From positions 60 through 64,059 of the forward strand of contig JBAXUB010000004.1 of NCBI GenBank assembly GCA_037129895.1: a DNA stretch of 64,000 bases, read 5' to 3'. Numbering within the stretch: position 1 is the first letter of the stretch; each line of letters starts with the position of its first letter. The notes beneath the pieces are model-generated. The model did no database searches. It was not told the origin of the DNA and worked only from the letters and a program-made list of their open reading frames with translations. Below, piece after piece: positions 12,846-33,120 of the stretch. Position numbers and translations under genes: made by a program. The stretch comes from Candidatus Tayloriibacteriota bacterium (GTDB taxonomy: Bacteria > Patescibacteriota > Minisyncoccia > Phycocordibacterales > PALSA-1337).

Positions 12846-12898
12846 AAGGTAAAATCAAAAATTTTCAATTTTAACCTTTCAATTTTAAATTAATTATC

Positions 12899-13564: not shown

Positions 13565-13574
13565 TATCAATACC

Positions 13575-14060: not shown

Positions 14061-14095
14061 TTTCCATTTAATTTTTCCATTTTACATTAACTACC

Positions 14096-14950: not shown

Positions 14951-14959
14951 TAGATACCA

Positions 14960-14998
14960 TAAAAAAACCGTTAGATACACATTCTAACGGTTTTTTTG
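14960..14998. terminator. rho-independent terminator inside the r-protein cluster
   Basis: Hairpin aaccgttaga-tacacat-tctaacggtt flanked by an A7 run and a T7 run. Confidence 0.55.
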
Positions 14999-15161
14999 AT
15001 GTGTGGGTATTGTTGATAGAATGTATTCTCAAACGCGATATTTAGTATATACTTATGTAAATGTATAAACTATTCGTAAAGATGGGAAAAAGTGCAGTAA
15101 CACTAATAATGCGCCTCATACTTGGAAGATAGGCTATAGTTATTATTTTATAATATAGTCC

Positions 15162-15190
15162 TTGACTTCAAAGCACGGCTCTGTTAACAT
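15162..15190 (+). promoter_or_regulatory. candidate sigma70-type promoter for rpsS
   Basis: TTGACT, 17-nt spacer, TAACAT. Sits 40 nt upstream of the rpsS start. Confidence 0.4.
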
Positions 15191-15229
15191 GGCTCATGAG
15201 TCCACAAGGGCTTATTTTATTCTATTTTT

Positions 15230-15580
15230 ATGTCACGATCACTTAAAAAAGGCCCATACGTCGAAGAGAGATTGCTACGCAAGATCTTGGGTAAAAAGCC
15301 TGCAACAGCTGGTACTATAAAGACATGGGCACGCCGCTCTCAAATCTCACCAGAAATGGTTGGCTTTACTTTTGGTGTACACAATGGCAAGGCACATATT
15401 GATGTATTTGTAACCGAGGATATGGTAGGACACCGCCTCGGTGAATTTTCGCCTACACGTAAGTTCGTACGCCATGGAGGTAAGATGCAAAAGGAGCTCG
15501 AAATGAAAGCCAAGGAAGCTGAGATGACAGCCGCCAAGTCTGCTAAGGAAGCCGCTACTGCCGTAGTTGCCAAAAAATAA
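15230..15580 (+). CDS. rpsS: 30S ribosomal protein S19 (K/A-rich C-terminal extension)
   Basis: SLKKGPY...[13 protein letters not shown] motifs. Confidence 0.9.
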
Positions 15581-15589
15581 TACACTGCC

Positions 15590-16003
15590 ATGATCACCGC
15601 CTCATTAAAGAATTACAGAATAGCACCACGTAAAGTCCGTCTAGTTGCAGACATGATACGAGGCAAGAGTGTTATCCAAGCTGAAAATATCTTGGTTGGT
15701 GCAGTCAAGAAAGCAACAAACCCACTCGGCGATCTATTGGCGTCAGCAGTAGCCAATGCATCTCATAATTTCAAGATTGAGAAAGATGCACTTTTCGTAA
15801 AGGAGATCCGTGTTGATCAGGGATATGTTTTGAAGCGCAGCCAACCTATGGCACGAGGTTCAGCTTTTCCTATAAAGAAGAGAACGAGTCATGTCACATT
15901 GACACTCGCTCCTATAGAAGCAAAGGTAAAGAAGCAAGCAGGAAAGAACAAGAAGCAAGGAGAAGAGAGCAAGGCAAAAGCAGCAAAGGTTGCAAAGAAA
16001 TAA
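15590..16003 (+). CDS. rplV: 50S ribosomal protein L22 (K-rich C-terminal extension)
   Basis: L22 fold signature. Expected position in the cluster. Confidence 0.85.
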   Translation: MITASLKNYRIAPRKVRLVADMIRGKSVIQAENILVGAVKKATNPLGDLLASAVANASHNFKIEKDALFVKEIRVDQGYVLKRSQPMARGSAFPIKKRTSHVTLTLAPIEAKVKKQAGKNKKQGEESKAKAAKVAKK

Positions 16004-16016
16004 TAAATTTACCAAA

Positions 16017-16694
16017 ATGTCACACACCGTACATCCATATTCACATAGACTAGGAATCATACGCGACTGGAAGAGCCGATGGTTTTCTTCTGATAAGCTA
16101 TATCGAACATCATTGAAAGGGGACCTCATCATTCGAGAATTCCTACAGAAAGAATTGCGTGCGAACTACGTTGGTGGTTTGGATATAGAGCGCAATCAGA
16201 AAGTTCTACGCGTTATAGTGAAGACTTCTCGCCCAGGTATGCTCATCGGCAAGTCTGGTGATGGAGTCGTCAAACTTCGCGAGAAAATATTGAAGCTATT
16301 ACGCAAAAACAAGGTTGAGCTAAAGAGTGTTGAACTCAAGCTCGACATAGAAGAGATCCGCAGTCCAGAATCGAATGCCGCTATAGCAGCTATGATGGTT
16401 GCAGAGTCACTAGAGAAGCGTCTACCATTCCGACGTGTTATGAAGCAGACAATCGAGAAGGTTATGGCCAATAGAGATGTAAAGGGTATCCGTATCCGTC
16501 TCGGAGGTCGTCTAGGTGGTGCGGAGATCGCACGCTCAGAAGAGCTCAAGAAAGGTCAAGTTCCACTTCAGACATTGCGTGCGGATATCGACTTTGCTCG
16601 TGAGAAGGCACACATGACTTATGGAGACATAGGTATCAAGGTTTGGATATATAAGGGTGAGATATTCAAGAAGGACCAAGTCGTAGCCAAGTAA
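16017..16694 (+). CDS. rpsC: 30S ribosomal protein S3
   Basis: VHPYSHRLGIIRDWKSRWF N-terminus, KH domain. Start at the internal Met. Confidence 0.9.
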   Translation: MSHTVHPYSHRLGIIRDWKSRWFSSDKLYRTSLKGDLIIREFLQKELRANYVGGLDIERNQKVLRVIVKTSRPGMLIGKSGDGVVKLREKILKLLRKNKVELKSVELKLDIEEIRSPESNAAIAAMMVAESLEKRLPFRRVMKQTIEKVMANRDVKGIRIRLGGRLGGAEIARSEELKKGQVPLQTLRADIDFAREKAHMTYGDIGIKVWIYKGEIFKKDQVVAK

Positions 16695-16730
16695 TTTCCA
16701 TTTTAACTTTTCAATTTTCATCAAACTACC

Positions 16731-17156
16731 ATGTTATTTCCTAAAAAAGTAAAACATCGCAAGTGGTTCACAATGCGTACTCATCCTGACAAGGAAATGT
16801 CGCACGCTGATACACGTGGAGTAAAATTGGCTTTCGGTTCTTTTGGATTGAAGGCTATGAAATATTCTCGTATCACATCTAACCAGATCGAAGCTGCTCG
16901 TAAGGTCATGGCACGCTATGCTACAAAGTCTGGAAAAGTTTGGATCAGAATTTTCCCGGATCATCCTTTTACACAGAAACCTGCAGAAGTGAAAATGGGA
17001 AAAGGAAAAGGTGATCCAGTTGGCTTTATCGCCGAGGTGAAGCCAGGTCGCATCATGTTCGAGATCGACGGAGTAGATGCAGTCGTTGCTGCAGAGGCAC
17101 TTCGTAAGGCGGGAACAAAGTTGCCAGTCAAGACAAAAGTAGTCTCGAGAATGTAA
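16731..17156 (+). CDS. rplP: 50S ribosomal protein L16
   Basis: MLFPKKVKHRK N-terminus and L16 core. Confidence 0.9.
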   Translation: MLFPKKVKHRKWFTMRTHPDKEMSHADTRGVKLAFGSFGLKAMKYSRITSNQIEAARKVMARYATKSGKVWIRIFPDHPFTQKPAEVKMGKGKGDPVGFIAEVKPGRIMFEIDGVDAVVAAEALRKAGTKLPVKTKVVSRM

Positions 17157-17171
17157 TCAATACCAAATACC

Positions 17172-17378
17172 ATGAAAATGAAAGAAATCGTAAATAAGAA
17201 TAATTCAGACCTGAATCGTCTCATCACCGAGAAGAGAGAGGCTTTGAGAGCATTCAGATTTGGTTCTGCTGGCTCAAAGACAAAGAACGTCAAGGAAGGC
17301 CGAGGTATCAGGAAGGACATCGCACGCATAATGACGGAGCTAGCAAATGTAAAAGTAAAAATGGAAAATGGAAAATGA
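17172..17378 (+). CDS. rpmC: 50S ribosomal protein L29
   Basis: Small helical protein with LRAFRF motif. Expected position. Confidence 0.8.
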   Translation: MKMKEIVNKNNSDLNRLITEKREALRAFRFGSAGSKTKNVKEGRGIRKDIARIMTELANVKVKMENGK

Positions 17379-17467
17379 TGGACTGGAATTGTATTTTCCA
17401 TTTTAATATTTCAATTTTACATTAACTATAGACAAACACAGATAAATCAAGTAATATCAAACCCCAC

Positions 17468-17725
17468 ATGACAACAATCAAAACAACTGAAAATACACCA
17501 AAACGCCAGACATTTTCCGGTGTTGTTGTATCTGACAAGATGAAGGATACTACCGTAGTTGTCGTAGAGAGATACATCAAGCATGCAAAGTATCACAAGT
17601 TTTCAACAAAGAGGACAAAGATCTTGGCTCATGACCCAGGTAATACAAAGAAGATAGGAGACAAGGCCACGGTTGAAGCATGCAGACCAATATCCAAGAG
17701 AAAGGCATTCAAGATAATCGCATAA
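17468..17725 (+). CDS. rpsQ: 30S ribosomal protein S17
   Basis: GVVVSDKM..TVVV OB-fold signature. Confidence 0.9.
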   Translation: MTTIKTTENTPKRQTFSGVVVSDKMKDTTVVVVERYIKHAKYHKFSTKRTKILAHDPGNTKKIGDKATVEACRPISKRKAFKIIA

Positions 17726-17729
17726 TACC

Positions 17730-18101
17730 ATGATACAACCAAGAACGATCGTAAATATAGCAGACAATTCCGGAGCAAAGATCGGACGCATCTTCAAGGT
17801 ACTTGGTGCTACGAGAAAGCGCTATGCAGAGATCGGTGAGGTTGTCGTTCTATCAGTTCAGAAAGCAGAGCCTCGCAAGGCGATCAAGAAGAAAGACGTT
17901 TTGCATGCCGTAGTTGTCCGTCAAGTCAAACCTACACGACGTAAGGATGGTTCATATATACGTTTTGATGAGAATGCAGTCGTTATCATCGAAAAGGACA
18001 AGAAAGAACCAATCGCAGGACGTATATTCGGTCCTATACCTCGTGAAGTCGCCGAGGCAGGCTTCAAGACGATCGCTTCAAAGGCAGCTGAAATCGTATA
18101 A
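17730..18101 (+). CDS. rplN: 50S ribosomal protein L14
   Basis: MIQPRTIVNIADNSGAK N-terminus. Confidence 0.95.
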   Translation: MIQPRTIVNIADNSGAKIGRIFKVLGATRKRYAEIGEVVVLSVQKAEPRKAIKKKDVLHAVVVRQVKPTRRKDGSYIRFDENAVVIIEKDKKEPIAGRIFGPIPREVAEAGFKTIASKAAEIV

Positions 18102-18151
18102 TATTGTAGCGAAATTTTCCATTTTAACTTTTAAATTTTCCACTTACTACC

Positions 18152-18370
18152 ATGCATATCAAAAAAGGAGACACAGTCAAAATACTTTCAGGCGACGACA
18201 AGGGTAAAACCGGCAAAGTTGTAAAGGCTTTTCCTGCAACGAACAAGATCATTGTCGAGAAGGTGAATACTGTAAAGAAGCATGAGCGAGCTCGCAAAGA
18301 AGGCCAGAAAGGTCAGACAGTCGAAGTCGCTATGCCATTCGATGCTTCAAAGGCAGTAAAGACTGCATAA
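18152..18370 (+). CDS. rplX: 50S ribosomal protein L24 (short)
   Basis: IKKGDTVKILSGDDKGKTGKV KOW motif. Confidence 0.85.
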   Translation: MHIKKGDTVKILSGDDKGKTGKVVKAFPATNKIIVEKVNTVKKHERARKEGQKGQTVEVAMPFDASKAVKTA

Positions 18371-18406
18371 TTTTCCATTTTAACTTTTAAATTTAACATC
18401 AATACC

Positions 18407-18964
18407 ATGGCTTACAAATCCGTATACGAATTAAATAAAGATTCATTCAAGACATTGAAGGAACCATTGGGTCTCAAGAATCCAATGCAGACACCTCGCC
18501 TAGTCAAGGTAGTCATTTCTAGTGGTTTCGGTTCTGTGAAGGATAAAAAGAAGATCGAGATCATGGCAGACAGACTGGCTCGTATCACTGGCCAGAAGCC
18601 TGCTGTTCGTGTCACAAAGAAAGCTATAGCAACATTCAAGACTCGTGTTGGTGACCCTATCGGTTATCAGATCACACTTCGTGGTAAAAGGATGTGTGAA
18701 TTCTTGGATAGACTCATACACATTTCATTACCTCGAACAAAGGACTTCCGCGGCCTAGCCCGAACATCAGTTGATGCGATGGGGAACTACACGATCGGAG
18801 TGAAGGAACATACTATCTTCGCTGAGACTTCAGATGAAGACCTCAAGGATGTATTTGGTTTCGCTATCACTATCGTGACGACTTCGGATAACAAGAAATC
18901 GACATTGGCGTTTCTAGAATACTTGGGCATGCCTCTAAAGAAGGAAGGGGAGATAAAGAAATAG
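18407..18964 (+). CDS. rplE: 50S ribosomal protein L5
   Basis: PRLVKVVISSGFG motif and L5 core. Confidence 0.9.
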   Translation: MAYKSVYELNKDSFKTLKEPLGLKNPMQTPRLVKVVISSGFGSVKDKKKIEIMADRLARITGQKPAVRVTKKAIATFKTRVGDPIGYQITLRGKRMCEFLDRLIHISLPRTKDFRGLARTSVDAMGNYTIGVKEHTIFAETSDEDLKDVFGFAITIVTTSDNKKSTLAFLEYLGMPLKKEGEIKK

Positions 18965-19010
18965 GTTTTGTAGGCTCTAAAAGTGAATATATATTGAGAA
19001 AACTAGGCCC

Positions 19011-19039
19011 TTGACAGCCTAGTTCTCGTATGCTATACT
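19011..19039 (+). promoter_or_regulatory. candidate sigma70 promoter (TTGACA-17-TATACT) upstream of the DGR target gene
   Basis: Near-consensus -35 and -10 with 17-nt spacer. Preceded by an 8-bp hairpin aactaggc/gcctagtt. Confidence 0.5.
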
Positions 19040-19093
19040 TGTAATAGGTTCCTCATCCGGCGAAACATAATAAACCTCAAAAAAAGGAATAGA

Positions 19094-19285
19094 ATGAATC
19101 GCAGGAAAAACCGAGTGGATCACGCAATTGACAAGATGGAGTCGCTTCAGTACTTGTACTTCGCGGCTTGGGGTATAGTGCTCATAGGTGCGGTAAGAGC
19201 AGTCTTATACGCCTTCGGCATGAAACTCACCCAGTGTTGGGTGGATGCGCCGCTACGGTGGCTTGTCCATTTCATGGGTTTCTGA
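19094..19285 (+). CDS. small hypothetical membrane protein
   Basis: ORF with one hydrophobic helix. Low support. Confidence 0.25.
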   Translation: MNRRKNRVDHAIDKMESLQYLYFAAWGIVLIGAVRAVLYAFGMKLTQCWVDAPLRWLVHFMGF

Positions 19286-19388
19286 TTAATAACGTGATTC
19301 ATAAAAGACTTGCTCAAAAGGCAGGTCTTTTTCTATACGTCATGATATATTATTTTCTAAACTATTCAGATTATGTTAATATATTGAT

Positions 19389-21641
19389 GTGGAAAGAATC
19401 CCAGAAGAACCAAATTTTCATGAAATATCTGAAAAAAGGAAGGAACTCCGAGGGGCTATTTCTGAACTTGGTGATAAGGGACCTATTTTTGAAAAGCACT
19501 ATAAAAAACCACTAGCCGAGGCGGATGAGGAGGCGAGCAAATTCAAAATAGAAGATTTTGGTGGTATTAGTGGTGCCAAGAAAGTTCTCAAAAAACAAAA
19601 ATCCAAATACGAAGAAGATTTTTCTGAAGATAGGGCTCATATTGATTATGAAACTATTTTGAAGGTAGCGCCAGAAGTGGGCGAAGTGCAAAAGATAACA
19701 GAAGAGATTGCCGATCTTAAGGATTTTAGGATGCGTCGAATGTTAGAGCTTTTAAGCCCGCAAACTTCACTTTCAGCTAAAACGAGAAACGAAGCTGTGC
19801 TTAAAACTGTAAAAGAAGAAATCAGAGAAAACGAAGAAAAATTAGAAGAGGCTGACTCGTTGGTTTTACGCCAGGCAGAGCTTATCGAATACAAAGAAAA
19901 TTTGGCCAAGAGTGGTCATATTTGCATCACACCTAGTGTAGAAAAAGATCTGGAGGCGATAGGCGACAGAATGCTTACTGGCAAGCCGATGTTTCTACAT
20001 GGTCCTACAGGTACAGGAAAAACTTCTCTAGCCAGATTCGCTGCTACTCATTTTACTGGCAATGACCCGGAAATGGTTTTTTGTAATCCACAGACTAAGG
20101 AATCAAATGTCTGGGGGAAGACCGGTATTAAGCCAGCGGGAGGCGGAGCGATAGAAACTGTGGAGATTTATGGCCCGCTCGCCAAAGCAATGATAGACGG
20201 CAAGACCGTGATTTTTGATGAATTTACCGCTTTGCCAAAAGAGCAAATGGTTTTCATTAAAGGTGTTTTTAATGCCAAGGTGGGGGATAGAATAAATATT
20301 GTTGGCAATGGCATCGTCGAAATTGCTCCCGGTTTCCAAATGATTTTTACCGCCAACTTGAAATCTGAGAAAAATCCCGAGAGGCAGGATTTACCGCCAG
20401 AAATTGCCCGAGAATTTGAACAAAATAACCTAGAGGTCAAATATACACCCCAAGGTGAAGCTTACGACATTATGCTTTCTAGGCTTCTGAATCGAGACGG
20501 TTCTATCGATATGTCTTTTTATGATTTGAATACCACTCTGCCGAATCTTTGTAAAGTGATGACAGAAATCCAGGAATCGTATACCAACGAGACTGATAAA
20601 GAGGTGGCGAGAAGAGCAGGGGCAATGGATGCTTCCGGTAAGGTTTATTCCTTGAAAAAATTTGTGATGACACAGGGTTCAGTGGAAGCAATTTTGTCTT
20701 CATATTTGATAGAAAAACAGACGGGCAGGAAGGAGAGAAGTTTCGCAGAATTTTTGGATGAAAGATTCATGACAGCTCTGACTTTCAAAGAATACCCCAA
20801 AGAAGATAGAATCTTGGTGGCTAAGATTTTAGCGTCCAAAGGATTTTTGTTGACATTAAATGTCAAAGATTTGGATTTACCGGAAGATATTTTTCAGTTG
20901 AATACCATCAAAGCAATGCGTGGGGAAGATGCCGTAGAAGAACTCCAAAAAGAGTCTGGTGCGGTTAAACATCTAACCTTGAAGGAGGTGGCGGAGCTCG
21001 ACCCGTTCCATAAAAGGCCAGAATTATTGAAAAAACAAGCAGAAGCACTTTTGGGAGATGAAAAGAGCGAAAAAGACCCATTTTTAAAAAGCTTGAATAA
21101 AAAAATGGAGAAAATTTTTGGTAAGGAGAAACCAGTCAATATAATTGATCTATTGATCGCCCACGAACCTTTCCTCAGAGAAACTTTTGGTAAATGGTAC
21201 AGTGGTGATCAAAAGAAGATCGATATTCCTCAAAGACCATCTCTTGTCGACCCGCAATCGTTAGACTTTTCCTCCCTCAAATCCGATATTGACCCTTCAA
21301 AATTCGGTGAATACACCCTAAACCCCGAATGTCTCGGCCTAGACTTCAAAACTGCCAAAATCAAGGTCCTAGATATCCAAAAAGAAATCAAAACTAACAA
21401 ACTAACTGATATAGCCTCCATTGGTAAATACATTATTGACACCTACAGCAAAGACTATATCATCCCAGATATCTCCTTTTGGCAGTGGATGATTGAAAAA
21501 GGTGCCAATGCTCCAACTGAACTTCTGGATGGCAACTATCACTTTTGTTTCGGCTCTATCCTCCGCCGCTCGGGTGGCGATGCTGAGGTGCCTTATGCGA
21601 ATTGGCTTGGCTCTGAGTTCAGTCGGGATGCCCGCAGGTGA
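19389..21641 (+). CDS. AAA+ ATPase (MoxR/AAA_5-like) with C-terminal DGR variable-region domain; DGR target protein 1
   Basis: Walker A GPTGTGKTSLARF and Walker B VIFDEF. N-terminal coiled coil. The last ~130 nt match the TR with adenine-specific mismatches. Confidence 0.7.
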   Translation: MERIPEEPNFHEISEKRKELRGAISELGDKGPIFEKHYKKPLAEADEEASKFKIEDFGGISGAKKVLKKQKSKYEEDFSEDRAHIDYETILKVAPEVGEVQKITEEIADLKDFRMRRMLELLSPQTSLSAKTRNEAVLKTVKEEIRENEEKLEEADSLVLRQAELIEYKENLAKSGHICITPSVEKDLEAIGDRMLTGKPMFLHGPTGTGKTSLARFAATHFTGNDPEMVFCNPQTKESNVWGKTGIKPAGGGAIETVEIYGPLAKAMIDGKTVIFDEFTALPKEQMVFIKGVFNAKVGDRINIVGNGIVEIAPGFQMIFTANLKSEKNPERQDLPPEIAREFEQNNLEVKYTPQGEAYDIMLSRLLNRDGSIDMSFYDLNTTLPNLCKVMTEIQESYTNETDKEVARRAGAMDASGKVYSLKKFVMTQGSVEAILSSYLIEKQTGRKERSFAEFLDERFMTALTFKEYPKEDRILVAKILASKGFLLTLNVKDLDLPEDIFQLNTIKAMRGEDAVEELQKESGAVKHLTLKEVAELDPFHKRPELLKKQAEALLGDEKSEKDPFLKSLNKKMEKIFGKEKPVNIIDLLIAHEPFLRETFGKWYSGDQKKIDIPQRPSLVDPQSLDFSSLKSDIDPSKFGEYTLNPECLGLDFKTAKIKVLDIQKEIKTNKLTDIASIGKYIIDTYSKDYIIPDISFWQWMIEKGANAPTELLDGNYHFCFGSILRRSGGDAEVPYANWLGSEFSRDARR

Positions 21642-21681
21642 GACAATGACTGGCGCTCCAGCTATCGGGTTGCTCTCCTCG
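21549..21681 (+). other. DGR variable region VR1 (extends ~40 nt past the TGA stop at 21639..21641)
   Basis: 16 mismatches against the TR, 15 of them at TR adenines. The 3-prime ~35 nt (initiation of mutagenic homing, IMH-like) are identical to the TR. Confidence 0.8.
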
Positions 21682-21770
21682 AGAGGTAGTGTTTGTATTG
21701 ACCTTGGCCTTTTGACTTTTGTCTTGTCCCCATCGTCTGTTCTCTTTGATTCTTTTGGATTTTGCAATCC

Positions 21771-21800
21771 TCCCGAATGTAATCATTCGGGAGGATTTGT
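21771..21800 (+). other. perfect 13-bp hairpin atcctcccgaatg-taat-cattcgggaggat downstream of VR1
   Basis: Seen directly. Lies exactly at the boundary where the VR1 and VR2 duplicated modules diverge. Confidence 0.5.
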
Positions 21801-22035
21801 CCTATGTTATACTTGTCAGGCATATACAATAATGCGTCCGGGTACGCTTTGACGCGCTATATGCCGAGACCAACAGAACAGAGTCAAGTGCGGTTATCCA
21901 AACTTGAGCGTGTCTGCTGGTGGTGTAATAATTAAACACACTCTGTGAAGCCCACCAAGACATTATGATGTCAAAGACAAAAACCATCCGTGCTTAGGTG
22001 TCATCACGTGCGGGATTGGATATAGATGATGGGCT

Positions 22036-22165
22036 TCGCTAATCCTCCGCAACTCGGATGGCGATGCTAAGGTGCCTTATGCGAATTGGAATGGCACTGA
22101 GTTCAATCGGAATGCCAACAGGTTAGACAATGACTGGAACTCCAACTATCGAGTTGCTCTCCTCG
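22036..22165 (+). other. DGR template repeat (TR)
   Basis: Adenine-rich counterpart of VR1/VR2. AAC/AAT codons lie in register with the target reading frame. Confidence 0.8.
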
Positions 22166-22195
22166 TTACTGTGTTGATTTTCCACCAATTTGGAA

Positions 22196-22567
22196 TTATT
22201 TAAATTGGTGGTTTTGTTTTTTTATTTGGTTTTTCCAGCCGTATAACATTTTGCCGACTTCCTCAACTTTTTGCGACAGGCTAAAAAAAGTATTTTGATC
22301 TAGTCCTTTAAGCTCAAATAAAGCATAGAACATAAACTTAAGCGTATCATTCTTGGTAATGGCGGACATAATCAGTTCTGTGCGAAGGTGAGGTTCGCTA
22401 TAATATGCCGAAGCGATTGATTCTATCATCGTTGCTAGTATCGTCTCGATTCGTATACCCATGGAATAGCGAAGCGATTTGGGAATATGTTTCGTTTTGA
22501 GTTGCCAATCTACATAAAGAGCCAATACTTTTAAGCTTATGCTGGGCAGTTTGCTTGTCGTAGTCAT
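22196..22567 (-). CDS. avd: four-helix-bundle protein, DGR accessory Avd-like (23S rRNA intervening-sequence protein family)
   Basis: ~120-aa helical protein between TR and RT. Family resemblance to TIGR02436. Opposite strand to the RT. Confidence 0.5.
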   Translation of the reverse strand: MTTTSKLPSISLKVLALYVDWQLKTKHIPKSLRYSMGIRIETILATMIESIASAYYSEPHLRTELIMSAITKNDTLKFMFYALFELKGLDQNTFFSLSQKVEEVGKMLYGWKNQIKKQNHQFK

Positions 22568-22575
22568 TTTGCCTA

Positions 22576-23586
22576 TTGTATATGAAAAAAAATAAAAATA
22601 ACATACCCACCTTCGATGAAATTATAACCCTACCCTCGCTGTTTTCAGCATGGCGAGAGTTTGTTTGTGGCAAGAAATCAAAAGGTGATGTGGCGATATT
22701 TGCTATAAATTTATATTCTAATTTGCGAGCTCTAGGCACTGATTTGATGTATGACAGGTATCAGCATGGCGGATACGAATATTTTAAAGTCAAAGATCCG
22801 AAAGAACGCGACATTCATAAGGCGAGTGTGAGAGATCGGGTTGTTCATCATCTTTTATATTCTGCACTCTATGATCATTTTGACCATTATTTTATTTATG
22901 ATTCGTATTCTTGTCGGAATGGCAAAGGCACACACCGTGCAGTGGAGCGGTTTGCTAGATTTGTGTATTCTGTGAGCCAGAGAAATACGCAACCAGTTTG
23001 GATTCTTAAATGTGATATCCGAAAATGCTTTGCTTCAGTTGATCATAGTATCTTACTCGCTATATTAAAACGGCATATCTGTTGTCCGCATTTATCTGGT
23101 ATCGTTAGATCGGTAATTAGAAGCTTTTCAAGTGGCTTGGAAGGAAAAGGAATTCCGTTAGGTAATCTTACTAGCCAGTTATTTATTAATGTTTATCTTC
23201 ACGAATTAGACACATATATTAAAAGAACGCTCGGAGTAAAATATTATATCCGTTATGCTGATGATTTTGTAATTATGGCCAATAGCCGCTTCCTACTGGA
23301 CAATCAGCTCATCCTTATCCGCCATTTTTTGGAAACTAAACTCAAAATGCAAATTCATCCCGATAAAATATTCATTAAAACACTGGCGACAGGATTAGGT
23401 TTCCTCGGCTGGATAAAGTTTTTTGATCACTTGATTCCACGGGCTTCTACTAGACGGCGGATGTTTAAAACAATTAAAAATAGTCCGCATCGGGAAGTAA
23501 CAATACAGTCATATCTCGGAATGCTATCGCACGGGAATACGCACAAACTCCGGGAAATAATCCGGCAAATGCTTGATGGAAAATAG
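22576..23586 (+). CDS. DGR reverse transcriptase
   Basis: Motifs GIPLGNLTSQLFINVYL (IGxxxSQ hallmark of DGR RTs) and RYADDFVI (YxDD). 336 aa. Confidence 0.85.
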   Translation: MYMKKNKNNIPTFDEIITLPSLFSAWREFVCGKKSKGDVAIFAINLYSNLRALGTDLMYDRYQHGGYEYFKVKDPKERDIHKASVRDRVVHHLLYSALYDHFDHYFIYDSYSCRNGKGTHRAVERFARFVYSVSQRNTQPVWILKCDIRKCFASVDHSILLAILKRHICCPHLSGIVRSVIRSFSSGLEGKGIPLGNLTSQLFINVYLHELDTYIKRTLGVKYYIRYADDFVIMANSRFLLDNQLILIRHFLETKLKMQIHPDKIFIKTLATGLGFLGWIKFFDHLIPRASTRRRMFKTIKNSPHREVTIQSYLGMLSHGNTHKLREIIRQMLDGK

Positions 23587-23618
23587 AAAAAGCAGAAGAA
23601 ATTTGGTAGAATGACAAT

Positions 23619-25508
23619 ATGGAACGACTAGATATTATAGAAACAAAAACAGGAAAAAAGCCAGAAGAAATTGCTGAGGATAGCGAGCATGCTGAGGCGG
23701 TGGCATTGGTGGAAAAGCATAGGGATTTTTTTGAGCATTATGCCAAAGGTAAGATAAAAATTGAGCCGGCACCTAAAAGCATACCCACTTTTGCTTTTAA
23801 TTTGGAAAAGAACACCATTTATGTAAATTCAATGTTCTATAAAAAGCTGGGTTTGTCTGAAGAAAAAACAGTCTTTGCAACTCTACATGAGATAGAACAT
23901 TTTATGGAAAAATTGCAGATTCTCTCTGAAGATGGCGGTGAGAAATCTTTTGATAAGTATTTAAAGAGAATCAAAGCTTCTAAAGCCTATTCTCTGATGG
24001 ATAATTGCGTGGCGGATATTCGCGAGAATCGGGCAGTGGTTGGAAAGACCAATAAAGGAATGGGTGAGCTGGAGGAAAAAACCTACAAAGAGGATCTGTT
24101 CGCGGAAACCGATTTTACCAAACAACCTAGGCATATCCAACTTAGTCAGGCACTTTTGAGAGAGGCTAGAGTACCGGATGAAAAGTGCGATGTATCGTCG
24201 GAAGTGAGGCAAGCGCTTGATGAGGTGGGAAAAGTGAAAGGTTTGATGGAAATAATGACGAACCCAGAAACGCCAATGTCCATGCGTATGAAATTGCAAG
24301 ATAAATATATCTGGCCGAAAGTGGAATCACTTTTGGAAAAAGATATGGAGGATAAGAAAAAACAAAAAGAGCAAGAAAAAAAGGAAAAAGAAAAGGGAGA
24401 AGGGAATGATGGTCGAGAATCAGGTGAAGGTAAGGAAGGGCAAGAGGGTGATAAGGACGAAGAAACAGACCCGAATAAAACATTTGCAGACGAGTATGCC
24501 AGGGCGGAGGCGAAATTTCCCGAAGCTGTGCCGATAGAAGAGATAGAAAAAGCCTTGAAAGAATGGAAAGAAGCGCAAAAAGGTAAAGACAATAATGATA
24601 AAGCAGACGAGGACTATGCAAAGAAAATCGGCGTGGAGAAAGAAGATTTGCAGGACTACAGGAAAATAGTAGAAAATTTGGAAAAAACTGTGAATCCGGA
24701 AACGGATGTTGGTATATTAGACGAATTAAAAAATCTTTTTTCTAGAATTATTGCCAAACGAATAAAGGTTGCTCAAGTACCAAAGTATCCAGTAGAAGAA
24801 GGGGATGAATTGACCGATCCGGCGCAACTCGTGGCAGATGTAAAATCTGGCAATCTTCAACCGAAAGTCTGGGAAGATACAGAAATTATAGAAAAAAAGG
24901 GAAACAGATTTGGTGAAGTAGAAATCACCTTGGTTTGTGATCAGTCTGGTTCCATGGCGGGGCAGAAAGCGGAAGAGCAGAGAAAGTCTGCTGTTTTGGT
25001 AATGGAGGTATTGAAAGAGTTTGGGGAGCTGTGTGAAGCAGAAAAGATAAATATAGACAAACCGCTCGAAGTAAAGTCTGAGATTTACGGTTTCGGTGCT
25101 GGTGATGATGAAAAGCCAATGAAAAAGATGTCTGCGGAGCTTGGTGAAGCGGAAAGGATAGAAGTGCTGAAAAGACTTTATGATGTGCCAGGTGGAACGA
25201 CTGATTTCAATTGTTTGGAAGCAATAGATGGCAATTTGACTGAAAATATAAAAAATAAAATCAAGATTGGCGAGCTTAAAAAAATAGTGATTGTCTTTAC
25301 CGATGGTGGAAGTGATAATCCAGGGAGAGTGCAGGGTGTTTTAAAAAGCTTGAGAGATGGTGGAGTGATAGCGATCGGTGTGGGGATTACTAGCGAAGGA
25401 ACACCAGTCTTGTCTACTTATGCGCCGAATGCATTGGTGGTGGAAGATGTAAGTAAATTACCAATCGTTTTGGGTGAACTTTTAAAAGAACATTTGAAAG
25501 ATTTATAG
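23619..25508 (+). CDS. zincin-like (HEIEH) metallopeptidase motif + acidic low-complexity linker + C-terminal von Willebrand factor A domain protein
   Basis: HExxH in TVFATLHEIEHFM. MIDAS motif CDQSGSM and ...VFTDGGSD in the C-terminal region. Confidence 0.6.
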   Translation: MERLDIIETKTGKKPEEIAEDSEHAEAVALVEKHRDFFEHYAKGKIKIEPAPKSIPTFAFNLEKNTIYVNSMFYKKLGLSEEKTVFATLHEIEHFMEKLQILSEDGGEKSFDKYLKRIKASKAYSLMDNCVADIRENRAVVGKTNKGMGELEEKTYKEDLFAETDFTKQPRHIQLSQALLREARVPDEKCDVSSEVRQALDEVGKVKGLMEIMTNPETPMSMRMKLQDKYIWPKVESLLEKDMEDKKKQKEQEKKEKEKGEGNDGRESGEGKEGQEGDKDEETDPNKTFADEYARAEAKFPEAVPIEEIEKALKEWKEAQKGKDNNDKADEDYAKKIGVEKEDLQDYRKIVENLEKTVNPETDVGILDELKNLFSRIIAKRIKVAQVPKYPVEEGDELTDPAQLVADVKSGNLQPKVWEDTEIIEKKGNRFGEVEITLVCDQSGSMAGQKAEEQRKSAVLVMEVLKEFGELCEAEKINIDKPLEVKSEIYGFGAGDDEKPMKKMSAELGEAERIEVLKRLYDVPGGTTDFNCLEAIDGNLTENIKNKIKIGELKKIVIVFTDGGSDNPGRVQGVLKSLRDGGVIAIGVGITSEGTPVLSTYAPNALVVEDVSKLPIVLGELLKEHLKDL

Positions 25509-25528
25509 TTTAAGCCTATAATTGCAAT

Positions 25529-26344
25529 ATGAATTTTGAATCTATCGTAAACATGGCCAAGGGGTCAAAGAAAGAGGAAATAGTCAAAAAACCGGAAAAA
25601 TCCCAAGAGGAACTCCGAGGAGCTTTGGAGTCAAAATTAGAATCTTCGAAACCAGTCTTGCAAGAGGGAATCAAAGAATATGAGCAGGCTTTGAAAGATG
25701 ATACTTTCGAAGACCAAGATGGTGAGGCAGAAGGAGCTGGTGAGAAAAGGAAGGAAGCTATGCAAGCCAAGCTCAGCTCCATGTTTGACCGAGCGGAAAA
25801 AATGAGGAAGCAATTGGACAGTGGTGAAATTCTCGAGCAAATTCCTGAGGCCGATACTATCTTACGGGAACCTTTCCTCAGAGAAACTTTTGGTAAATGG
25901 TACAGTGGTGATCAAAAGAAGATCGATATTCCTCAAAGACCATCTCTTGTCGACCCGCAATCGTTAGACTTTTCCTCCCTCAAATCCGATATTGACCCTT
26001 CAAAATTCGGTGAATACACCCTAAACCCCGAATGTCTCGGCCTAGACTTCAAAACTGCCAAAATCAAGGTCCTAGATATCCAAAAAGAAATCAAAACTAA
26101 CAAACTAACTGATATAGCCTCCATTGGTAAATACATTATTGACACCTACAGCAAAGACTATATCATCCCAGATATCTCCTTTTGGCAGTGGATGATTGAA
26201 AAAGGTGCCAATGCTCCAACTGAACTTCTGGATGGCAACTATCACTTTTGTTTCGGCTCTATCCTCCGCCGCTCGGGTGGCGATGCTGAGGTGCCTTATG
26301 CGAATTGGCTTGGCTCTGAGTTCAGTCGGGATGCCCGCAGGTGA
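25529..26344 (+). CDS. DGR target protein 2 (short; unrelated acidic N-terminus fused to the same VR-bearing C-terminal domain)
   Basis: Last 159 aa identical to target 1. DNA 25868..26469 identical to 21165..21766. Confidence 0.65.
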   Translation: MNFESIVNMAKGSKKEEIVKKPEKSQEELRGALESKLESSKPVLQEGIKEYEQALKDDTFEDQDGEAEGAGEKRKEAMQAKLSSMFDRAEKMRKQLDSGEILEQIPEADTILREPFLRETFGKWYSGDQKKIDIPQRPSLVDPQSLDFSSLKSDIDPSKFGEYTLNPECLGLDFKTAKIKVLDIQKEIKTNKLTDIASIGKYIIDTYSKDYIIPDISFWQWMIEKGANAPTELLDGNYHFCFGSILRRSGGDAEVPYANWLGSEFSRDARR

Positions 26345-26384
26345 GACAATGACTGGCGCTCCAGCTATCGGGTTGCTCTCCTCG
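26252..26384 (+). other. DGR variable region VR2 (identical to VR1)
   Basis: Exact copy of VR1 including the TGA stop. Confidence 0.75.
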
Positions 26385-26496
26385 AGAGGTAGTGTTTGTA
26401 TTGACCTTGGCCTTTTGACTTTTGTCTTGTCCCCATCGTCTGTTCTCTTTGATTCTTTTGGATTTTGCATTATAGTTATCATGGAATTGTTCCAAA

Positions 26497-26583
26497 GTCG
26501 GAGTGGTGAAATTGGCAAACACGCAGCGTTCAGAACGCTGTGAGCTCACGCTCTTGGGGGTTCAAGTCCCCCCTCCGGCACCA
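26497..26583 (+). tRNA. tRNA-Leu (anticodon CAG), CCA encoded
   Basis: Manual fold: acceptor GUCGGAG/CUCCGGC, anticodon loop UUCAGAA, long variable arm, T-arm GGGGG-UUCAAGU-CCCCC. Close overall to E. coli tRNA-Leu(CAG). Confidence 0.85.
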
Positions 26584-26617
26584 AAATCAGCAGACCACTA
26601 AGCAAGCCAATAATTTG

Positions 26618-26727
26618 GCTTGCGGCGGGGGACTTGAAAAGGTCGAGTATATTTTCGAGCGGCTATGCCGTGAGAAAATACGAGACCTGTACCGAAGCTG
26701 TAAGCTTCAAGTCCCCCCTCCGGCACA
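26618..26727 (+). repeat. ~110-nt structured element (X-Y) whose last 22 nt exactly repeat the tRNA-Leu 3-prime end (T-loop to discriminator); followed by a T9 run
   Basis: ttcaagtcccccctccggcac occurs at 26563..26584 (tRNA) and 26706..26727. 5-prime gggggacttgaa pairs with 3-prime ttcaagtccccc. Two internal hairpins covary with the copy at 1..170. Confidence 0.55.
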
Positions 26728-26905
26728 TTTTTTTTTGCTATTTTCCTCATATTTTGCTAGTCTATATTCTACTGGTTTGAGGTATCAGCTCTGATCTATT
26801 CTCTCAGCAAAATATCTCCGATCTGTAAATGCGCGCGTAGCTGTCTTGGTAGGTCTAAGACATCGGGCGGGCAAATAATGTTTCGTTGATAAATAGAGTT
26901 TATAT

Positions 26906-26978
26906 GCGCGCGTAGCTCAGTTGGTAGAGCACGCCACTGATACTGGCGGGGTCCCAGGTTCGAATCCTGGCGCGCGCA
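26906..26978 (+). tRNA. tRNA-Ile (anticodon GAU)
   Basis: Cloverleaf: GCGCGCG acceptor, D-arm gctc/gagc, anticodon loop CUGAUAC, T-arm ccagg-ttcgaat-cctgg. Confidence 0.85.
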
Positions 26979-27087
26979 CCCGAGTAAATCCGCTTATGCG
27001 GATTTTTAGTTGAGGTTTTATGTATGAGAGCGGAATTTTCCATTATGTCAATATTGCTTTTTTCTCTTCAAATGAGAAAATTGGAGC

Positions 27088-27939
27088 ATGGAGAAAGAGA
27101 AAAAATATTTAGCAATATTTGAAGGTAAACAAATTCGCCGACACTGGGATGGTGGTTCGGAGAAGTGGTATTTTTCTGTAGTTGATGTTGTTGGTGCGTT
27201 ATCAGGTAGCGAGCGCCCAAGAAAATATTGGGATGATCTAAAGCGACGTCTTTTTGATGAAGGAAGTGAAGTGTCCGCAAAAATCGGACAGTTGAAAATG
27301 GTGGCCGAGGATGGTAAATTGCGTGACACTGACTGTGCTGAAACCGAGGTGATGCTCCGTATTGTCCAGTCGATCCCTTCTCCAAATGCTGAACCATTCA
27401 AACTCTGGCTTGCAAAGGTTGGTTATGAACGGCTTGAGGAGACTGCAGATCCTGAACTCGCCATATTACGTGCACTAAAAACATACCTGAGTAAAGGTTA
27501 TTCATTGAATTGGATAAACCAACGCTTGAAAAGCATTGAGATACGCAAGGAACTTACAGATGAATGGGAAAAGTGTGGCGTAAAAGAAGGGTTTGAGTTT
27601 GCTATACTGACAGACGAGATATCAAAGGCTTGGACAGGGATGACAACTAGAGAGTACAAAAGCTTAAAAAATTTAAAGAAAGAAAATCTACGAGACAATA
27701 TGACAAACCTCGAATTGGTACTAAATATGTTAGCAGAGACCGCTACAACGGAGATTTCCAAGAAGGAAGCACCAAGAGGATTTGAACCGAGCAGAAAAGT
27801 TGCAAAAGATGGTGGAAGTATTGCTGGCAATGCGAGAAAACAAATCGAGCAGAAAATTGGAAAATCTATTTTGACAAGTGACAATTTCGAGACATTTAAG
27901 AATAAGTCTCTTAAGGAAAAAGGCAGTCAATCTATTTAA
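27088..27939 (+). CDS. Bro-N domain protein, DinD-like (paralog of 1675..2520)
   Basis: Motif LAIFEGKQIRRHWDGGSEKWYFSVVDVVGAL. ~65% identical to the first copy throughout. Confidence 0.55.
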   Translation: MEKEKKYLAIFEGKQIRRHWDGGSEKWYFSVVDVVGALSGSERPRKYWDDLKRRLFDEGSEVSAKIGQLKMVAEDGKLRDTDCAETEVMLRIVQSIPSPNAEPFKLWLAKVGYERLEETADPELAILRALKTYLSKGYSLNWINQRLKSIEIRKELTDEWEKCGVKEGFEFAILTDEISKAWTGMTTREYKSLKNLKKENLRDNMTNLELVLNMLAETATTEISKKEAPRGFEPSRKVAKDGGSIAGNARKQIEQKIGKSILTSDNFETFKNKSLKEKGSQSI

Positions 27940-27957
27940 ATTTGATCACAAGCCATA

Positions 27958-28542
27958 ATGTCCCTATCATTCACCAAAGAAGCTTTAAAAAAGTTCAAAA
28001 CTCAAGGGTCACTTTTTCCGAGTACATCGGCGTTGGGTAAGATGATGATAAAGCCGATCGTTATGAAACCCGGCATGATAATAGTAGAGTTTGGTGCAGG
28101 CACAGGATCGATTACCAAGGAATTGATTCCCAGGTTGCGATATGGTGCGACATTTCTCGTTTTTGAAAATAACAAAGTGTTGGCGGAAAAGTTGCGTGAT
28201 GACTTAGTACCATATATAGAAGCCACGAAATCTCATAGTAAGGTCATTTTGATAGAAGATGATGCAGCGAACTTGAGAGCACATCTCGATAGACTCGGTC
28301 TACCTTTGGCAGATTATGTTATTTCTGGATTACCTATAGGGAATTTCAAGAGACACGAACGACAGAAAATATTCGATGCTATAAATGAAGGAATGAAAGA
28401 GGATGGTATCTATGTTCAATTTCAATACCTATTGGCAAGCTTCCTGCATGTTCGTCGAGTATTCGACGCCAAGGTGATAGGCTATGAAGTTAGGAATGTA
28501 CCACCGGCATTCGTCTATGTTTGCAAGAAGAAAGCAGAGTAA
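27958..28542 (+). CDS. small class I SAM-dependent methyltransferase
   Basis: Gly-rich SAM loop IVEFGAGTGSITKEL. Acidic residue at the end of beta2. Confidence 0.5.
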   Translation: MSLSFTKEALKKFKTQGSLFPSTSALGKMMIKPIVMKPGMIIVEFGAGTGSITKELIPRLRYGATFLVFENNKVLAEKLRDDLVPYIEATKSHSKVILIEDDAANLRAHLDRLGLPLADYVISGLPIGNFKRHERQKIFDAINEGMKEDGIYVQFQYLLASFLHVRRVFDAKVIGYEVRNVPPAFVYVCKKKAE

Positions 28543-28618
28543 CCTAGGTACATTGTTACTGAACATTCGCTAGATTTGAATATTTTGAGAAAGGTCTAGT
28601 TTGGTGTAAAATTAGCCC

Positions 28619-29614
28619 ATGAATACAAATACATATATGAGTCCCAAGGACTTTTTTCTGCACCTGGGTGCAACCGTAGCCTTGTATGCAAGTGCTATCG
28701 CTATTATCAATCTGGCATTTGAGATAATGAATAGACTGCTGCCAGACACACTCTCCAATTATTGGAGTTCTAGTTCTATAGCATGGCCGATATCTATGCT
28801 AGTTGTCCTCGTCCCTATTCTATATACATTGGAAAACCTCATCAACCGAGATATCAGGAAGATTGCCGAGAAAAAAGATATCTGGATCAGGAGATGGAGG
28901 ATATATCTCACATTGTTTCTGTCAGGCGTCACTATCGCCGTTGATGTGATAACTCTGATCAATACATATTTAAATGGTGAGATATCGAGTAGGTTCATCT
29001 GGAAAGTTATCATCATTCTCATAATTTCTGCCGTCATATTTGCTTATTATATTTTGGCAAAAAATGTAGCCGGTGATCCGAGTGTTGAGTCGATAACAGG
29101 TGTAAAATCAAAAAAGCTTTGGCAGAGAATACTGGCAATAGTTGGAATAGTCGTTACTTTATCTGCGATCATCGCTGGCTTCATGATCGTCGGGTCTCCG
29201 AATACTCAAAGATCACTCCGTTTTGACAGTCAGAGAGTCAATGACCTCTCGAATATCCAGTGGCAGATCGTTACATATTGGCAGAGAGCAGGTAATATGC
29301 CAGATAGTCTATATGATCTCCGTGATCCGATCTCAAGTCTACAAATACCTCTAGATCCAGAGACAGGAAAACAATATGAATATGTTTCTATGAACAAGGA
29401 CCCATTGTCATTCGGCTTGTGTGCGACTTTCGATCTCGCTAGCAATTTCAAGAATAATGCTGTAAGCTCTCAAACTCAGCCGATAAAAGCTATGAATAAT
29501 GATGGGCTAGATTATGGCTGGGAACATCCAGCGGGATACTATTGTTTCGAAAAGAAGATCGATCCGAAACTTTACCCACGATCTGGTACAGTAGAAAAGC
29601 TATTTAATATTTAA
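28619..29614 (+). CDS. hypothetical integral membrane protein
   Basis: Several TM helices in the N-terminal half, soluble C-terminal domain. Confidence 0.4.
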   Translation: MNTNTYMSPKDFFLHLGATVALYASAIAIINLAFEIMNRLLPDTLSNYWSSSSIAWPISMLVVLVPILYTLENLINRDIRKIAEKKDIWIRRWRIYLTLFLSGVTIAVDVITLINTYLNGEISSRFIWKVIIILIISAVIFAYYILAKNVAGDPSVESITGVKSKKLWQRILAIVGIVVTLSAIIAGFMIVGSPNTQRSLRFDSQRVNDLSNIQWQIVTYWQRAGNMPDSLYDLRDPISSLQIPLDPETGKQYEYVSMNKDPLSFGLCATFDLASNFKNNAVSSQTQPIKAMNNDGLDYGWEHPAGYYCFEKKIDPKLYPRSGTVEKLFNI

Positions 29615-29633
29615 TATTCTTTTTATTATATTT

Positions 29634-31049
29634 ATGAATTTAGGCAAAAAAACCAAGATTGTCTGTACCATAGGACCAGCTACCAAATCAGCAGAGAAGC
29701 TCGAACAACTCATGAACGCAGGGATGAATGTGATGCGTCTCAACTTTTCTCACGGTGATTTTCCAGACCACCAAGATCGAGTAGATACTATGAGGAAAAT
29801 AATGCAGGATACAGGTAAGACTGTTGCAATACTCCAAGACCTTTCTGGACCAAAGATCCGTATCGGTAAATTCAAGGACGGCAAGATCACATTGAAGAAA
29901 GATCAGACTTTTACACTGACGACAGATGATTGTATAGGTGATGAGACAAGGGTATTCATCAATTATCCAAATCTACCAAAAGAGGTCAAAGTCGGCGGTA
30001 CGATCATGCTCCAAGATGGGACGAAGAGGTTGGAGATCATAGAAATAAAAGGAAATGACATCATTACTACAGTGAAAGTTGGAGGCACTCTAGGAGATCA
30101 TCGTGGCGTGAATGTTCCAGGAGCTAGTCTCTCGATCAGTTCTCTCACGGAGAAAGATCGTGCTGATCTAGAATTTGGTATAAAGAACAAAGTTGATTAT
30201 GTAGCTCTCTCGTTCGTACGCCGAGCTGATGATATCAAGGAGCTCCGTGCATTGCTCGAGAAGTCAGGATCTCACGCTCACATCATCGCCAAGATAGAAA
30301 CTCCGGAGGCTCTGCATAATATAGACGATATATTGGACGCTTCTGATGGTATCATGGTTGCTCGCGGTGATCTCGCTATCGAGATTCCCGCTGAAGAAGT
30401 TCCGTTGGTGCAGAAGATGATCATCCATAAATGTAACTCTGTAGGTAAGCCAGTTATCACCGCTACTCAGATGTTGGAGTCAATGCTCGAAAGTCCTGTA
30501 CCTACTCGTGCAGAAGTTTCTGATATAGCGAATGCTATCATCGACGGTACTGATGCGATCATGCTTTCAGAGGAAACTACTCTAGGAAAATTCCCAATAG
30601 AAGCGGTAGAGATAATGACTCGTGTAGCGACTAGGGTTGAGAAGGAAGTATATACTCGGGATACTATAGCCGAGTATGATGAATCACACGGCGTGACTGA
30701 CGTTGTATCGCAGTCTGCAGTTCGTATGGCTCATGCGGTCAATGCCAAGCTGATAGTGGCCCTAACACGTTCTGGCCGTACTGCTAGGATGATCGCACGT
30801 TATAGGCCAGCTGAGGCTATCCTGGCTCTTTCTGATGCCAAAGAGAATGCCAATAAGCTCATGCTCACCTTCGGCTGTTTCCCTATGGTCGCGCCAACAT
30901 TCAATTCCGCTGATGAGATCATGGATATCGTCCGTAAGATGACATTGGATAATAAACTAGTGAAAAAAGGGGATAAAGTCATCATTGTTGCTGGTATGCC
31001 TATGGGAGTTTCTAGGGAGACTAACTTTATTGTGGTGGAGACGTTATAG
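29634..31049 (+). CDS. pyk: pyruvate kinase
   Basis: KIVCTIGPA, MNVMRLNFSHG and MVARGDLAIEIP motifs. Confidence 0.9.
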   Translation: MNLGKKTKIVCTIGPATKSAEKLEQLMNAGMNVMRLNFSHGDFPDHQDRVDTMRKIMQDTGKTVAILQDLSGPKIRIGKFKDGKITLKKDQTFTLTTDDCIGDETRVFINYPNLPKEVKVGGTIMLQDGTKRLEIIEIKGNDIITTVKVGGTLGDHRGVNVPGASLSISSLTEKDRADLEFGIKNKVDYVALSFVRRADDIKELRALLEKSGSHAHIIAKIETPEALHNIDDILDASDGIMVARGDLAIEIPAEEVPLVQKMIIHKCNSVGKPVITATQMLESMLESPVPTRAEVSDIANAIIDGTDAIMLSEETTLGKFPIEAVEIMTRVATRVEKEVYTRDTIAEYDESHGVTDVVSQSAVRMAHAVNAKLIVALTRSGRTARMIARYRPAEAILALSDAKENANKLMLTFGCFPMVAPTFNSADEIMDIVRKMTLDNKLVKKGDKVIIVAGMPMGVSRETNFIVVETL

Positions 31050-31174
31050 GAATCAAACGGTTGACAAACGGTTCTGAAGGAGTATTATTACAGCATACCT
31101 TCTGTTGCTTCGGTGGCAGAACGCGAAATCGCAACCCTGTGTTGCGATTTCTGCATAAGGGAATATACATTGTA

Positions 31175-31825: not shown

Positions 31826-31836
31826 CAATAGAATGT

Positions 31837-32625: not shown

Positions 32626-32663
32626 AAAATTGAATAGTCAAAGATAGGGATTGAATCATAATT

Positions 32664-33113: not shown

Positions 33114-33120
33114 TATTCTG

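Follow-up and report, generated by a model that had tools for sequence, protein, structure and literature searches.

Results

Organization of the locus

The 64,000-nt stretch of contig JBAXUB010000004.1 analyzed here (Candidatus Tayloriibacteriota bacterium; hereafter the window) carries a diversity-generating retroelement (DGR) made up of one template repeat (TR), one Avd-like gene, one reverse transcriptase (RT) gene and two target genes that share a 3′ module bearing the variable region (VR). The TR, the Avd-like and RT genes and a gene for a protein with a von Willebrand factor A (vWA) domain all lie between the two copies of this module, R1 and R2. The element is a chromosomal DGR of the type found in Patescibacteria (candidate phyla radiation, CPR), and an ordinary multi-target CPR DGR.

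Target gene 1 (19389..21689, + strand) fuses the N-terminal part of a MoxR-like AAA ATPase (Pfam AAA_5, E = 4.3e-11) to the VR-bearing module, and target gene 2 (25529..26392, + strand) joins the same module to a helical, charged N-terminal part of 113 aa. As the sequence-only reading of this DNA had stated, the N-terminal parts of the two target open reading frames (ORFs) are unrelated (best BLASTP E = 0.17). For target 2, we found no Pfam or NCBIfam match, and its profile gave no informative PDB sequence match.

In the frame of the targets, the TR (22042..22165, + strand) reads ...NRLDNDWNSNYRVALL and contains AAC/AAT codons. VR1 (21558..21681) and VR2 (26261..26384), both on the + strand, carry the same sequence in the window, which we call allele b and which other assemblies place at VR2. 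Each differs from the TR at 16 positions, 15 of which are TR adenines (32 of the 124 TR bases), and the same adenine bias is repeated in nine further alleles. Adenine-specific mutagenic homing from the single TR would rewrite VR1 and VR2 independently.

The 16th mismatch, a non-adenine T-to-G change, makes an in-frame TGA out of TTA in R1 and R2 alike (21639-21641 and 26342-26344), 16 codons upstream of the natural TAG stop (21687-21689 and 26390-26392). The TR frame and all other VR alleles read through to this TAG, for 16 more codons. Because of the TGA, the 750-aa product of target 1 (P0127, NCBI MEI6304693.1) and the 271-aa product of target 2 (P0121, NCBI MEI6304697.1) are truncated forms of 766-aa and 287-aa proteins; the longer form of target 1 is called in contigs L006, L009 and L010 and that of target 2 in other assemblies (L-numbers denote contigs from other assemblies). 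A reading of TGA as a sense codon was rejected given the normal coding density under table 11, the TTG or TTA found there in the other alleles, and the fact that all gene callers stop at the TAG. Non-adenine T-to-G changes occur in two VR alleles, the TGA-making one in b (21640/26343) and one at TR index 105 in allele a, described below (L001 position 499).

Between the two modules, the Avd-like accessory protein (123 aa; 22196..22567, − strand) has sub-threshold but specific profile matches (Pfam bAvd, E = 5.8e-08, 33.6 bits against a cut-off of 40; NCBIfam DivGenRetAVD, E = 3.9e-09, 36.8 bits against a cut-off of 80), and its gene is kept at the same position in all relatives. The RT gene (22582..23586, + strand; 334 aa as called elsewhere, with TTG 22576 as a possible start) matches Pfam RVT_1 (E = 1.6e-21) and has an LGNLTSQ motif in its translation. 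Its best NCBIfam match, below the cut-off, is the group II intron RT, in libraries that hold no DGR-specific RT model; its relatives are the RTs of TR/VR-bearing DGR cassettes, all from metagenome-assembled genomes (MAGs) of Patescibacteria. The vWA-domain protein (629 aa; 23619..25508, + strand; Pfam VWA, E = 1.3e-08) is encoded in synteny in L035, L038-L041, L045 and L048. A tRNA-Leu gene (CAG; 26497..26583, + strand) begins 28 nt past R2.

Extent and reality of the repeat

R1 (21165..21766) and R2 (25868..26469), both on the + strand, are identical at 602 of 602 positions, and beyond them the identity of the flanks drops abruptly on both sides to 12-27%, which is the random level. The exact duplication reported by the sequence-only reading is thus confirmed, together with its sharp ends. 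A repeat finder returned the R1/R2 pair and a third, 124-nt copy at 22042-22165 that is 87% identical. In R1, the coding module takes up 393 nt and is followed by VR1 and a conserved 3′ flank of 85 nt; R2 holds VR2 and allele b in exact identity to it. The VR does lie inside the repeat, as had been claimed; the claimed 125 bp of 3′ flank shrink to 77 nt after the stop, given the natural TAG 16 codons past the TGA. Likewise, the right boundary does fall at a hairpin, described in the earlier reading as 13 bp at 21771-21800; the hairpin lies at 21766-21797, has a 14-bp stem and overlaps the end of the repeat by a single base. Its presence only after VR1 was correctly noted, since it is unique in the window and no such hairpin follows R2.

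We then looked for the four junctions of the repeat on contigs of other assemblies, naming the AAA part A, the repeat R, the middle segment M and the tRNA side B. The junction from A to R is present in L007, L029 and L006, that from R to the hairpin in L001, L002 and L029, that from the target-2 N terminus to R in L001, L002 and L006, and that from R to tRNA-Leu in L004, L005 and L006. In addition, the 478 non-VR bases of the repeat are identical across every copy in this strain and in a sister organism. Because each junction and the 478-base identity occur on separate contigs, the repeat outside the VR is not a collapse: the 602-bp repeat is genuine. One metagenome scan with the 30-nt repeat end returned only two contigs, both already among those compared here.

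VR alleles in other assemblies of the strain

Contigs of the same strain, recovered by exact-protein look-ups, came from ENA ERZ27300156 (MEGAHIT, k = 141; L007, L001 and L004), from JGI 3300021075 (L002) and from Logan SRR7053653 (L003, L005 and L012). The same kind of look-up gave no match for the 750-aa and 271-aa products of the window or for P0130, a further record of target 1 discussed below. The three ENA contigs correspond to window positions 8407-21305 (L007), 21165-26008 (L001) and 26130-37937 (L004), and the same-strain contigs show 0 substitutions relative to the window outside the VR. The VR of L001, which lies within k-mer reach of the hairpin and TR flank, carries allele a, with 21 differences from the window, all within 21567-21664, and without the premature stop. 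L002, from the JGI assembly, also joins allele a to the TR-side flank. The VR of L004, which is joined to tRNA-Leu, is the allele b of the window, including the TGA. According to these assemblies, the strain has a at VR1 and b at VR2; the window has b in both. The expectation that independent homing should make the VRs differ therefore holds in the other assemblies: VR1 and VR2 do not differ in the window, and they do differ across the separate same-strain contigs L001 and L004 (a/b).

The contig breaks fall where the de Bruijn graph of A-R-M-R-B must break, at exactly repeat position 141 or 262/263. The A contig ends 141 nt into R, L004 starts at repeat position 263 (k − 1 ahead of the first VR difference), and L001 consists of R, M and the first 141 nt of R (4844 = 4703 + 141 nt). 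The perfect repeat arms around the VR measure 402 nt to its left and 85 nt to its right (98 nt from the last variable site), so that an assembler with a shorter effective k cannot phase the VR with its flank. Such an assembler would pass twice through one retained VR path, here the VR2 allele. The possibility of an assembly collapse, raised in the sequence-only reading, thus stands for the VR alone, where the k = 141 assembly puts a different allele at the VR1 flank, and falls for the rest of the repeat.

The same locus in a sister organism

A similar spread of outcomes was found in the sister organism, whose ribosomal genes are 72-82% identical to those of the window and which is 98.5% identical to it over window positions 17724-26727. 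VR1 is allele c in L006/L016, L017, L018 and L019, and VR2 is allele d in L006/L016 and in L017, each with both VRs on one contig. In the NCBI MAG contig L009, both copies carry d, and the low-coverage SPAdes contig L030 joins d to the TR-side flank. Since the arms block phasing, our reading is that a single VR path was used twice in the window, and likewise in L009, to give their identical VRs. Contig L010 has the form A-R(d)-B, without Avd, RT, vWA and target 2, and the loop that it skips is found, with a c-type base, on L020, a separate contig of the same sample. Another low-coverage SPAdes contig, L053, joins at 5838-6047 the target 1 of the sister strain to the target 2 of strain E (see below) through a duplicated 55-nt junction, and is probably a chimeric assembly.

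Across all assemblies, we found at least six VR1 alleles and at least three securely linked VR2 alleles. Between the window and the sister cassette (19300-26580), 4 differences lie outside the VRs versus 45 in the two VRs. These differences and alleles show that both VRs are active, with diversification ongoing.

The near-identity between the two organisms spans window 17724-26583 (rplN-rplX-rplE, the whole DGR cassette and tRNA-Leu; 98.5-99.95% identical to L006 and L009) and stops at the 3′ end of the tRNA-Leu gene, and the single-nucleotide polymorphisms (SNPs) between window and sister are clustered at 17727-17756, 18220-18328 and 19067-19287. The sharing of the cassette looks like a recent inter-species transfer via recombination in the conserved flanks.

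These contigs could also be read as traces of mobility, in which the 4703-bp unit of repeat and middle segment would be an excisable or integrative one-target DGR inserted in the AAA gene, A-R-B contigs being the empty site and the loops being circles. The loop contigs with k-length terminal overlaps (L001, L018 and L033), the A-R-B contig L010 and a cassette 99.95% identical in two organisms with flanks 72-82% identical are in line with this idea. However, the de Bruijn graph of A-R-M-R-B yields the same contig shapes, the long contigs L006 and L017 hold the full linear arrangement, the chromosomes of distant relatives have AAA::module, TR, Avd, RT and vWA in linear order, and the unit has no recombinase and no match among viral contigs, two scans of which were negative. 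We therefore regard an excisable unit as very unlikely.

Age of the target pair and concerted evolution of the modules

Relatives whose RTs are 43-56% identical (Zambryskibacteria, Saccharibacteria, Yonathbacteria and others) have the order AAA::module, TR, Avd on the − strand, RT and vWA, and their single VR precedes the TR by about 480-550 nt. Target 2 is part of a well-populated family, with more than 40 full-length homologues of about 285 aa (40-70% identity, 95-100% coverage). A target of about 285 aa also follows vWA in L048 and in the P0037 contig, in cassettes that also have an AAA target. L048 holds three targets, whose modules are only 77% and 71% identical at the DNA level, while the approximately 95 nt after their stop codons are 96% identical. 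These comparisons indicate that the two-target architecture is old and does not stem from a new duplication. The L048 cassette (4955-10858) contains, besides its three module-sharing targets, a PemK toxin gene, and at the place of the RT it has only short ORFs (189 and 42 aa), suggesting a decayed RT.

The opposite view, that target 2 arose de novo when a brand-new duplication added the 3′ module from target 1 to an unrelated ORF, would account for the sharp boundaries and the unrelated N termini. It conflicts with the conservation of target 2 as a full-length family of its own and with its position after vWA in distant relatives with diverged modules, and we consider it extremely improbable. 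The very recent duplication proposed in the sequence-only reading thus does not hold for the two-target order, which is old in distant relatives with 71-77% identical modules. What is recent is the homogenization of the modules.

This homogenization can be followed in related strains. Outside the VR, the repeat differs from that of the window at 5 sites in strain F, at 20 of 467 in copy 2 of strain E and at 27 of 478 in copy 1 of strain D; copy 1 of strain D and copy 2 of strain E have 14 of these differences in common, with the same base. Within the window, R1 and R2 differ at none of the 478 non-VR positions, and the two 3′ flanks of strain D have 4 differences from the window in common and 3 between themselves. 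This pattern shows that the modules of related strains evolve in concert. Given that the target pair predates the strains, homogenization of the modules must have followed their divergence. The simplest and most likely mechanism is gene conversion across the module: such non-reciprocal homologous recombination would recently have equalized both modules over all 602 bp, and ongoing concerted evolution would also keep the 3′ flank behind the VR uniform. Comparison with related genomes, put forward in the sequence-only reading as a check, thus bore out the recent identity of the modules and showed the duplication itself to be old in distant relatives.

That reading had also suggested shuffling of the module by the retroelement itself, via a long cDNA or ectopic retrohoming. 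Nothing points directly to such copying; the right end of the repeat does coincide with the end of the conserved post-VR flank. Against it, TR and VR are homologous over no more than 124 of the 602 bp, and what lies in front of the TR is unrelated to the 393 nt that precede the VR. Those 393 nt are also free of adenine-specific changes, whether copies or strains are compared. The suggestion is therefore rejected, and we hold copying by the retroelement to be next to impossible.

Artifact or conversion at the VR

Our analysis indicates that the identity of the VRs in the window contig is probably an assembly artifact, and the explanation that best covers the locus as a whole, an old DGR target pair homogenized by gene conversion with an artifactual identity of its VRs, is likely on balance. 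Several points weigh against it. Homology stops completely at both ends of the identity block, as would be unusual for one classical conversion tract, and the artifact is assigned to this particular contig by analogy. A TC indel at 30134 separates the ENA contig L004 from the window, so the ENA contigs may come from another sample, in which case VR1 could really have changed. The extra TC of L004 belongs to a (TC)n run and shifts the frame of the pyruvate kinase gene, which is an intact 471-aa gene in the window and in the Logan contig. Furthermore, the 750-aa form of target 1, with allele b, is encoded on a 74.8-kb JGI contig as well (P0130). The cluster listing has P0130 and no JGI record of the 271-aa target 2, as expected of an A-R(b)-B contig that skips the loop in the manner of L010.

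The last of these points comes from strain D, in which the 120-kb scaffold L055 has no Avd, RT, vWA or target-2 N terminus. At 12654-12862, it runs from the spacer that precedes the TR into a TR/VR hybrid, then into a second, slightly different 3′ flank and tRNA-Leu. The hybrid is TR-like over its first ~36 nt and from there on the same as the VR1 allele of that genome. The TR/VR junction is not a k-mer mis-join, as too few bases are in common, and the arrangement is consistent with a genuine deletion between TR and VR2 that removed the RT. The VR on the tRNA-Leu side equals VR1 at all variable sites from index 37, although the 3′ flanks differ at 3 sites, and this VR1-like remainder suggests that real co-conversion of the VR can occur.

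The identity could accordingly be real, if target 1 received the VR2 allele, TGA included, through conversion between the 602-bp copies and homing has not acted since. The concerted evolution of the modules argues that conversion does occur, and conversion of the module would carry the VR along. L055, with its VR1 sequence beside tRNA-Leu despite differing flanks, the presence of allele b in the target-1 context in two records (P0127 and P0130) and the indel that may set the ENA contigs apart as another sample all speak for this view. However, two other assemblies of the strain have allele a at VR1, the sister organism shows its VR2 allele twice only in a MAG and in a SPAdes contig versus four assemblies with c at VR1, and path errors at the repeat are demonstrable (L010 with L020). 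In addition, conversion would need to inactivate both targets simultaneously. Weighing these points, we find a real identity of the VRs unlikely. A broader version, in which the repeat arms form a recombination system that transfers VR alleles, nonsense alleles included, and loses the RT cassette (between R1, R2, TR and VR), would make real variants of the identical VRs in the window and L009, of the A-R-B form of L010 and of the hybrid in L055. We view it as a tentative possibility and a doubtful one.

Hairpins and the flank behind the VR

In the hairpin that adjoins the right end of R1 (21766..21797, + strand), a perfect 14-bp stem encloses a loop of 4 nt (dG −26.2 kcal/mol, z = −5.9). This hairpin occurs once in the window, is absent past R2, is conserved in strain D and is absent in distant relatives; it is probably the terminator of target 1. 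Two other roles were considered and rejected, that of a repeated or mobile element, because the hairpin is unique in the window, and that of a requirement for homing, because VR2 has diversified without it. A second hairpin (22182..22211, + strand), a 13-bp stem followed by a T-run, overlaps the 3′ end of the convergent avd gene and is probably a bidirectional terminator. It starts 16 nt after the end of the TR, and such a terminator-like hairpin right behind the TR suggests that the TR is probably a short separate RNA, not co-transcribed with the RT.

When the post-VR flanks were aligned across relatives, they showed a T/G-rich stretch ending in TTTGCR, and the right end of the window repeat lies exactly there. 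The T/G-rich flank, of ~85-95 nt, is kept behind every target VR (window 21682-21766 and 26385-26469; 4451-4548, 7244-7341 and 10854-10947 in L048). It is a candidate cis element for homing.

Surrounding DNA

The DGR cassette lies directly behind rplE (window 18964-19389; 26470 onwards), and the usual continuation of the ribosomal operon (S14/S8/L6...) is not the next element in the window, L006 or L055. A repeat finder detected an intergenic repeat of ~36 nt (ATTTTCCATTTTAA...), in direct and inverted orientation, ahead of several ribosomal protein genes (17341-17428, 18114-18149, 18370-18405 and 27029-27044). An Rfam search of 19000-27200 returned two tRNAs and nothing else.

Discussion

The prototype of these elements is the DGR of Bordetella phage BPP-1, in which TR-to-VR adenine mutagenesis, assisted by Avd, diversifies a C-terminal VR. 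As in BPP-1, the TR and VR of the present locus diverge at their 3′ ends, in a manner resembling an initiation of mutagenic homing (IMH) site. In contrast to BPP-1, the avd-like gene sits here between TR and RT in the opposite orientation, a probable terminator follows the TR itself, and the large hairpin stands 85 nt past the end of the VR and is not needed for the diversification of VR2.

DGRs with several VRs, in which paralogous targets carry independently diversified VRs, were catalogued in 2012 (Schillinger et al., PMC3521204) and in a later survey (PMC11661182). Their paralogues are thought to derive from duplication, and adenines are the only sites at which the VRs depart from the TR and from one another (PMC3521204). 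Here too, one TR and one RT serve two target ORFs with C-terminal VRs. Unlike the published pairs, which are 41-81% identical, the paralogy is confined to the 602-bp 3′ module, 100% identical between otherwise unrelated genes, and this identity would be maintained by homogenization.

As described in the passages on these organisms in two studies, the DGRs of Patescibacteria form a cell-encoded RT clade of their own, clade 2 (Roux et al. 2021, PMC8144416), and they most often target an AAA ATPase with a fused CLec domain (PMC10907252). To the extent of those passages, the present locus resembles the CPR DGRs in being cell-encoded, from aquatic Patescibacteria, and in targeting an AAA ATPase with a C-terminal VR domain (the CLec fold of which is not confirmed here); a second short target after vWA and an exact module repeat are not described in them (PMC8144416, PMC10907252).

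MoxR-vWA-VMAP ternary conflict systems diversified by DGRs are described in two studies (Kaur et al. 2020, PMC7159879; Dore et al. 2024, PMC10907252), the latter of which proposes that duplication and recombination place VR-bearing C termini onto other N termini (PMC10907252). In a similar way, a vWA protein and a third, small protein accompany the MoxR-like AAA_5 ATPase of the present locus, with DGR-diversified ligand-binding ends and conserved synteny. It differs from the Thiohalocapsa system as given there, where the VR is on the vWA protein, in that the ATPase and the third protein carry the VR, and it differs from the MoxR-vWA-VMAP systems of these studies in RT clade. Our Pfam and NCBIfam searches of the locus returned no VMAP, peptidase or effector domain.

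The striking feature of the window, its two identical VRs, is most likely not biological, and the locus leaves the knowledge of how DGRs work unchanged. Its main value is one of caution, as a DGR target module repeated within the locus is unphaseable by short-read assemblers. The public MAGs of this organism and of its sister would therefore carry the wrong VR in the AAA-ATPase target, with what is probably a false premature stop in that target of the window, while other contigs skip the whole RT cassette, and surveys of VR diversity based on such contigs would miscount targets and alleles. Taken together, the locus offers a clean example of an old two-target DGR whose modules and ~85-nt post-VR flank evolve in concert, of VR rewriting that outpaces 7 kb of surrounding DNA (raw counts of 45 vs. 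4), and of a whole cassette that looks to have moved between organisms with ribosomal genes only ~75% identical.

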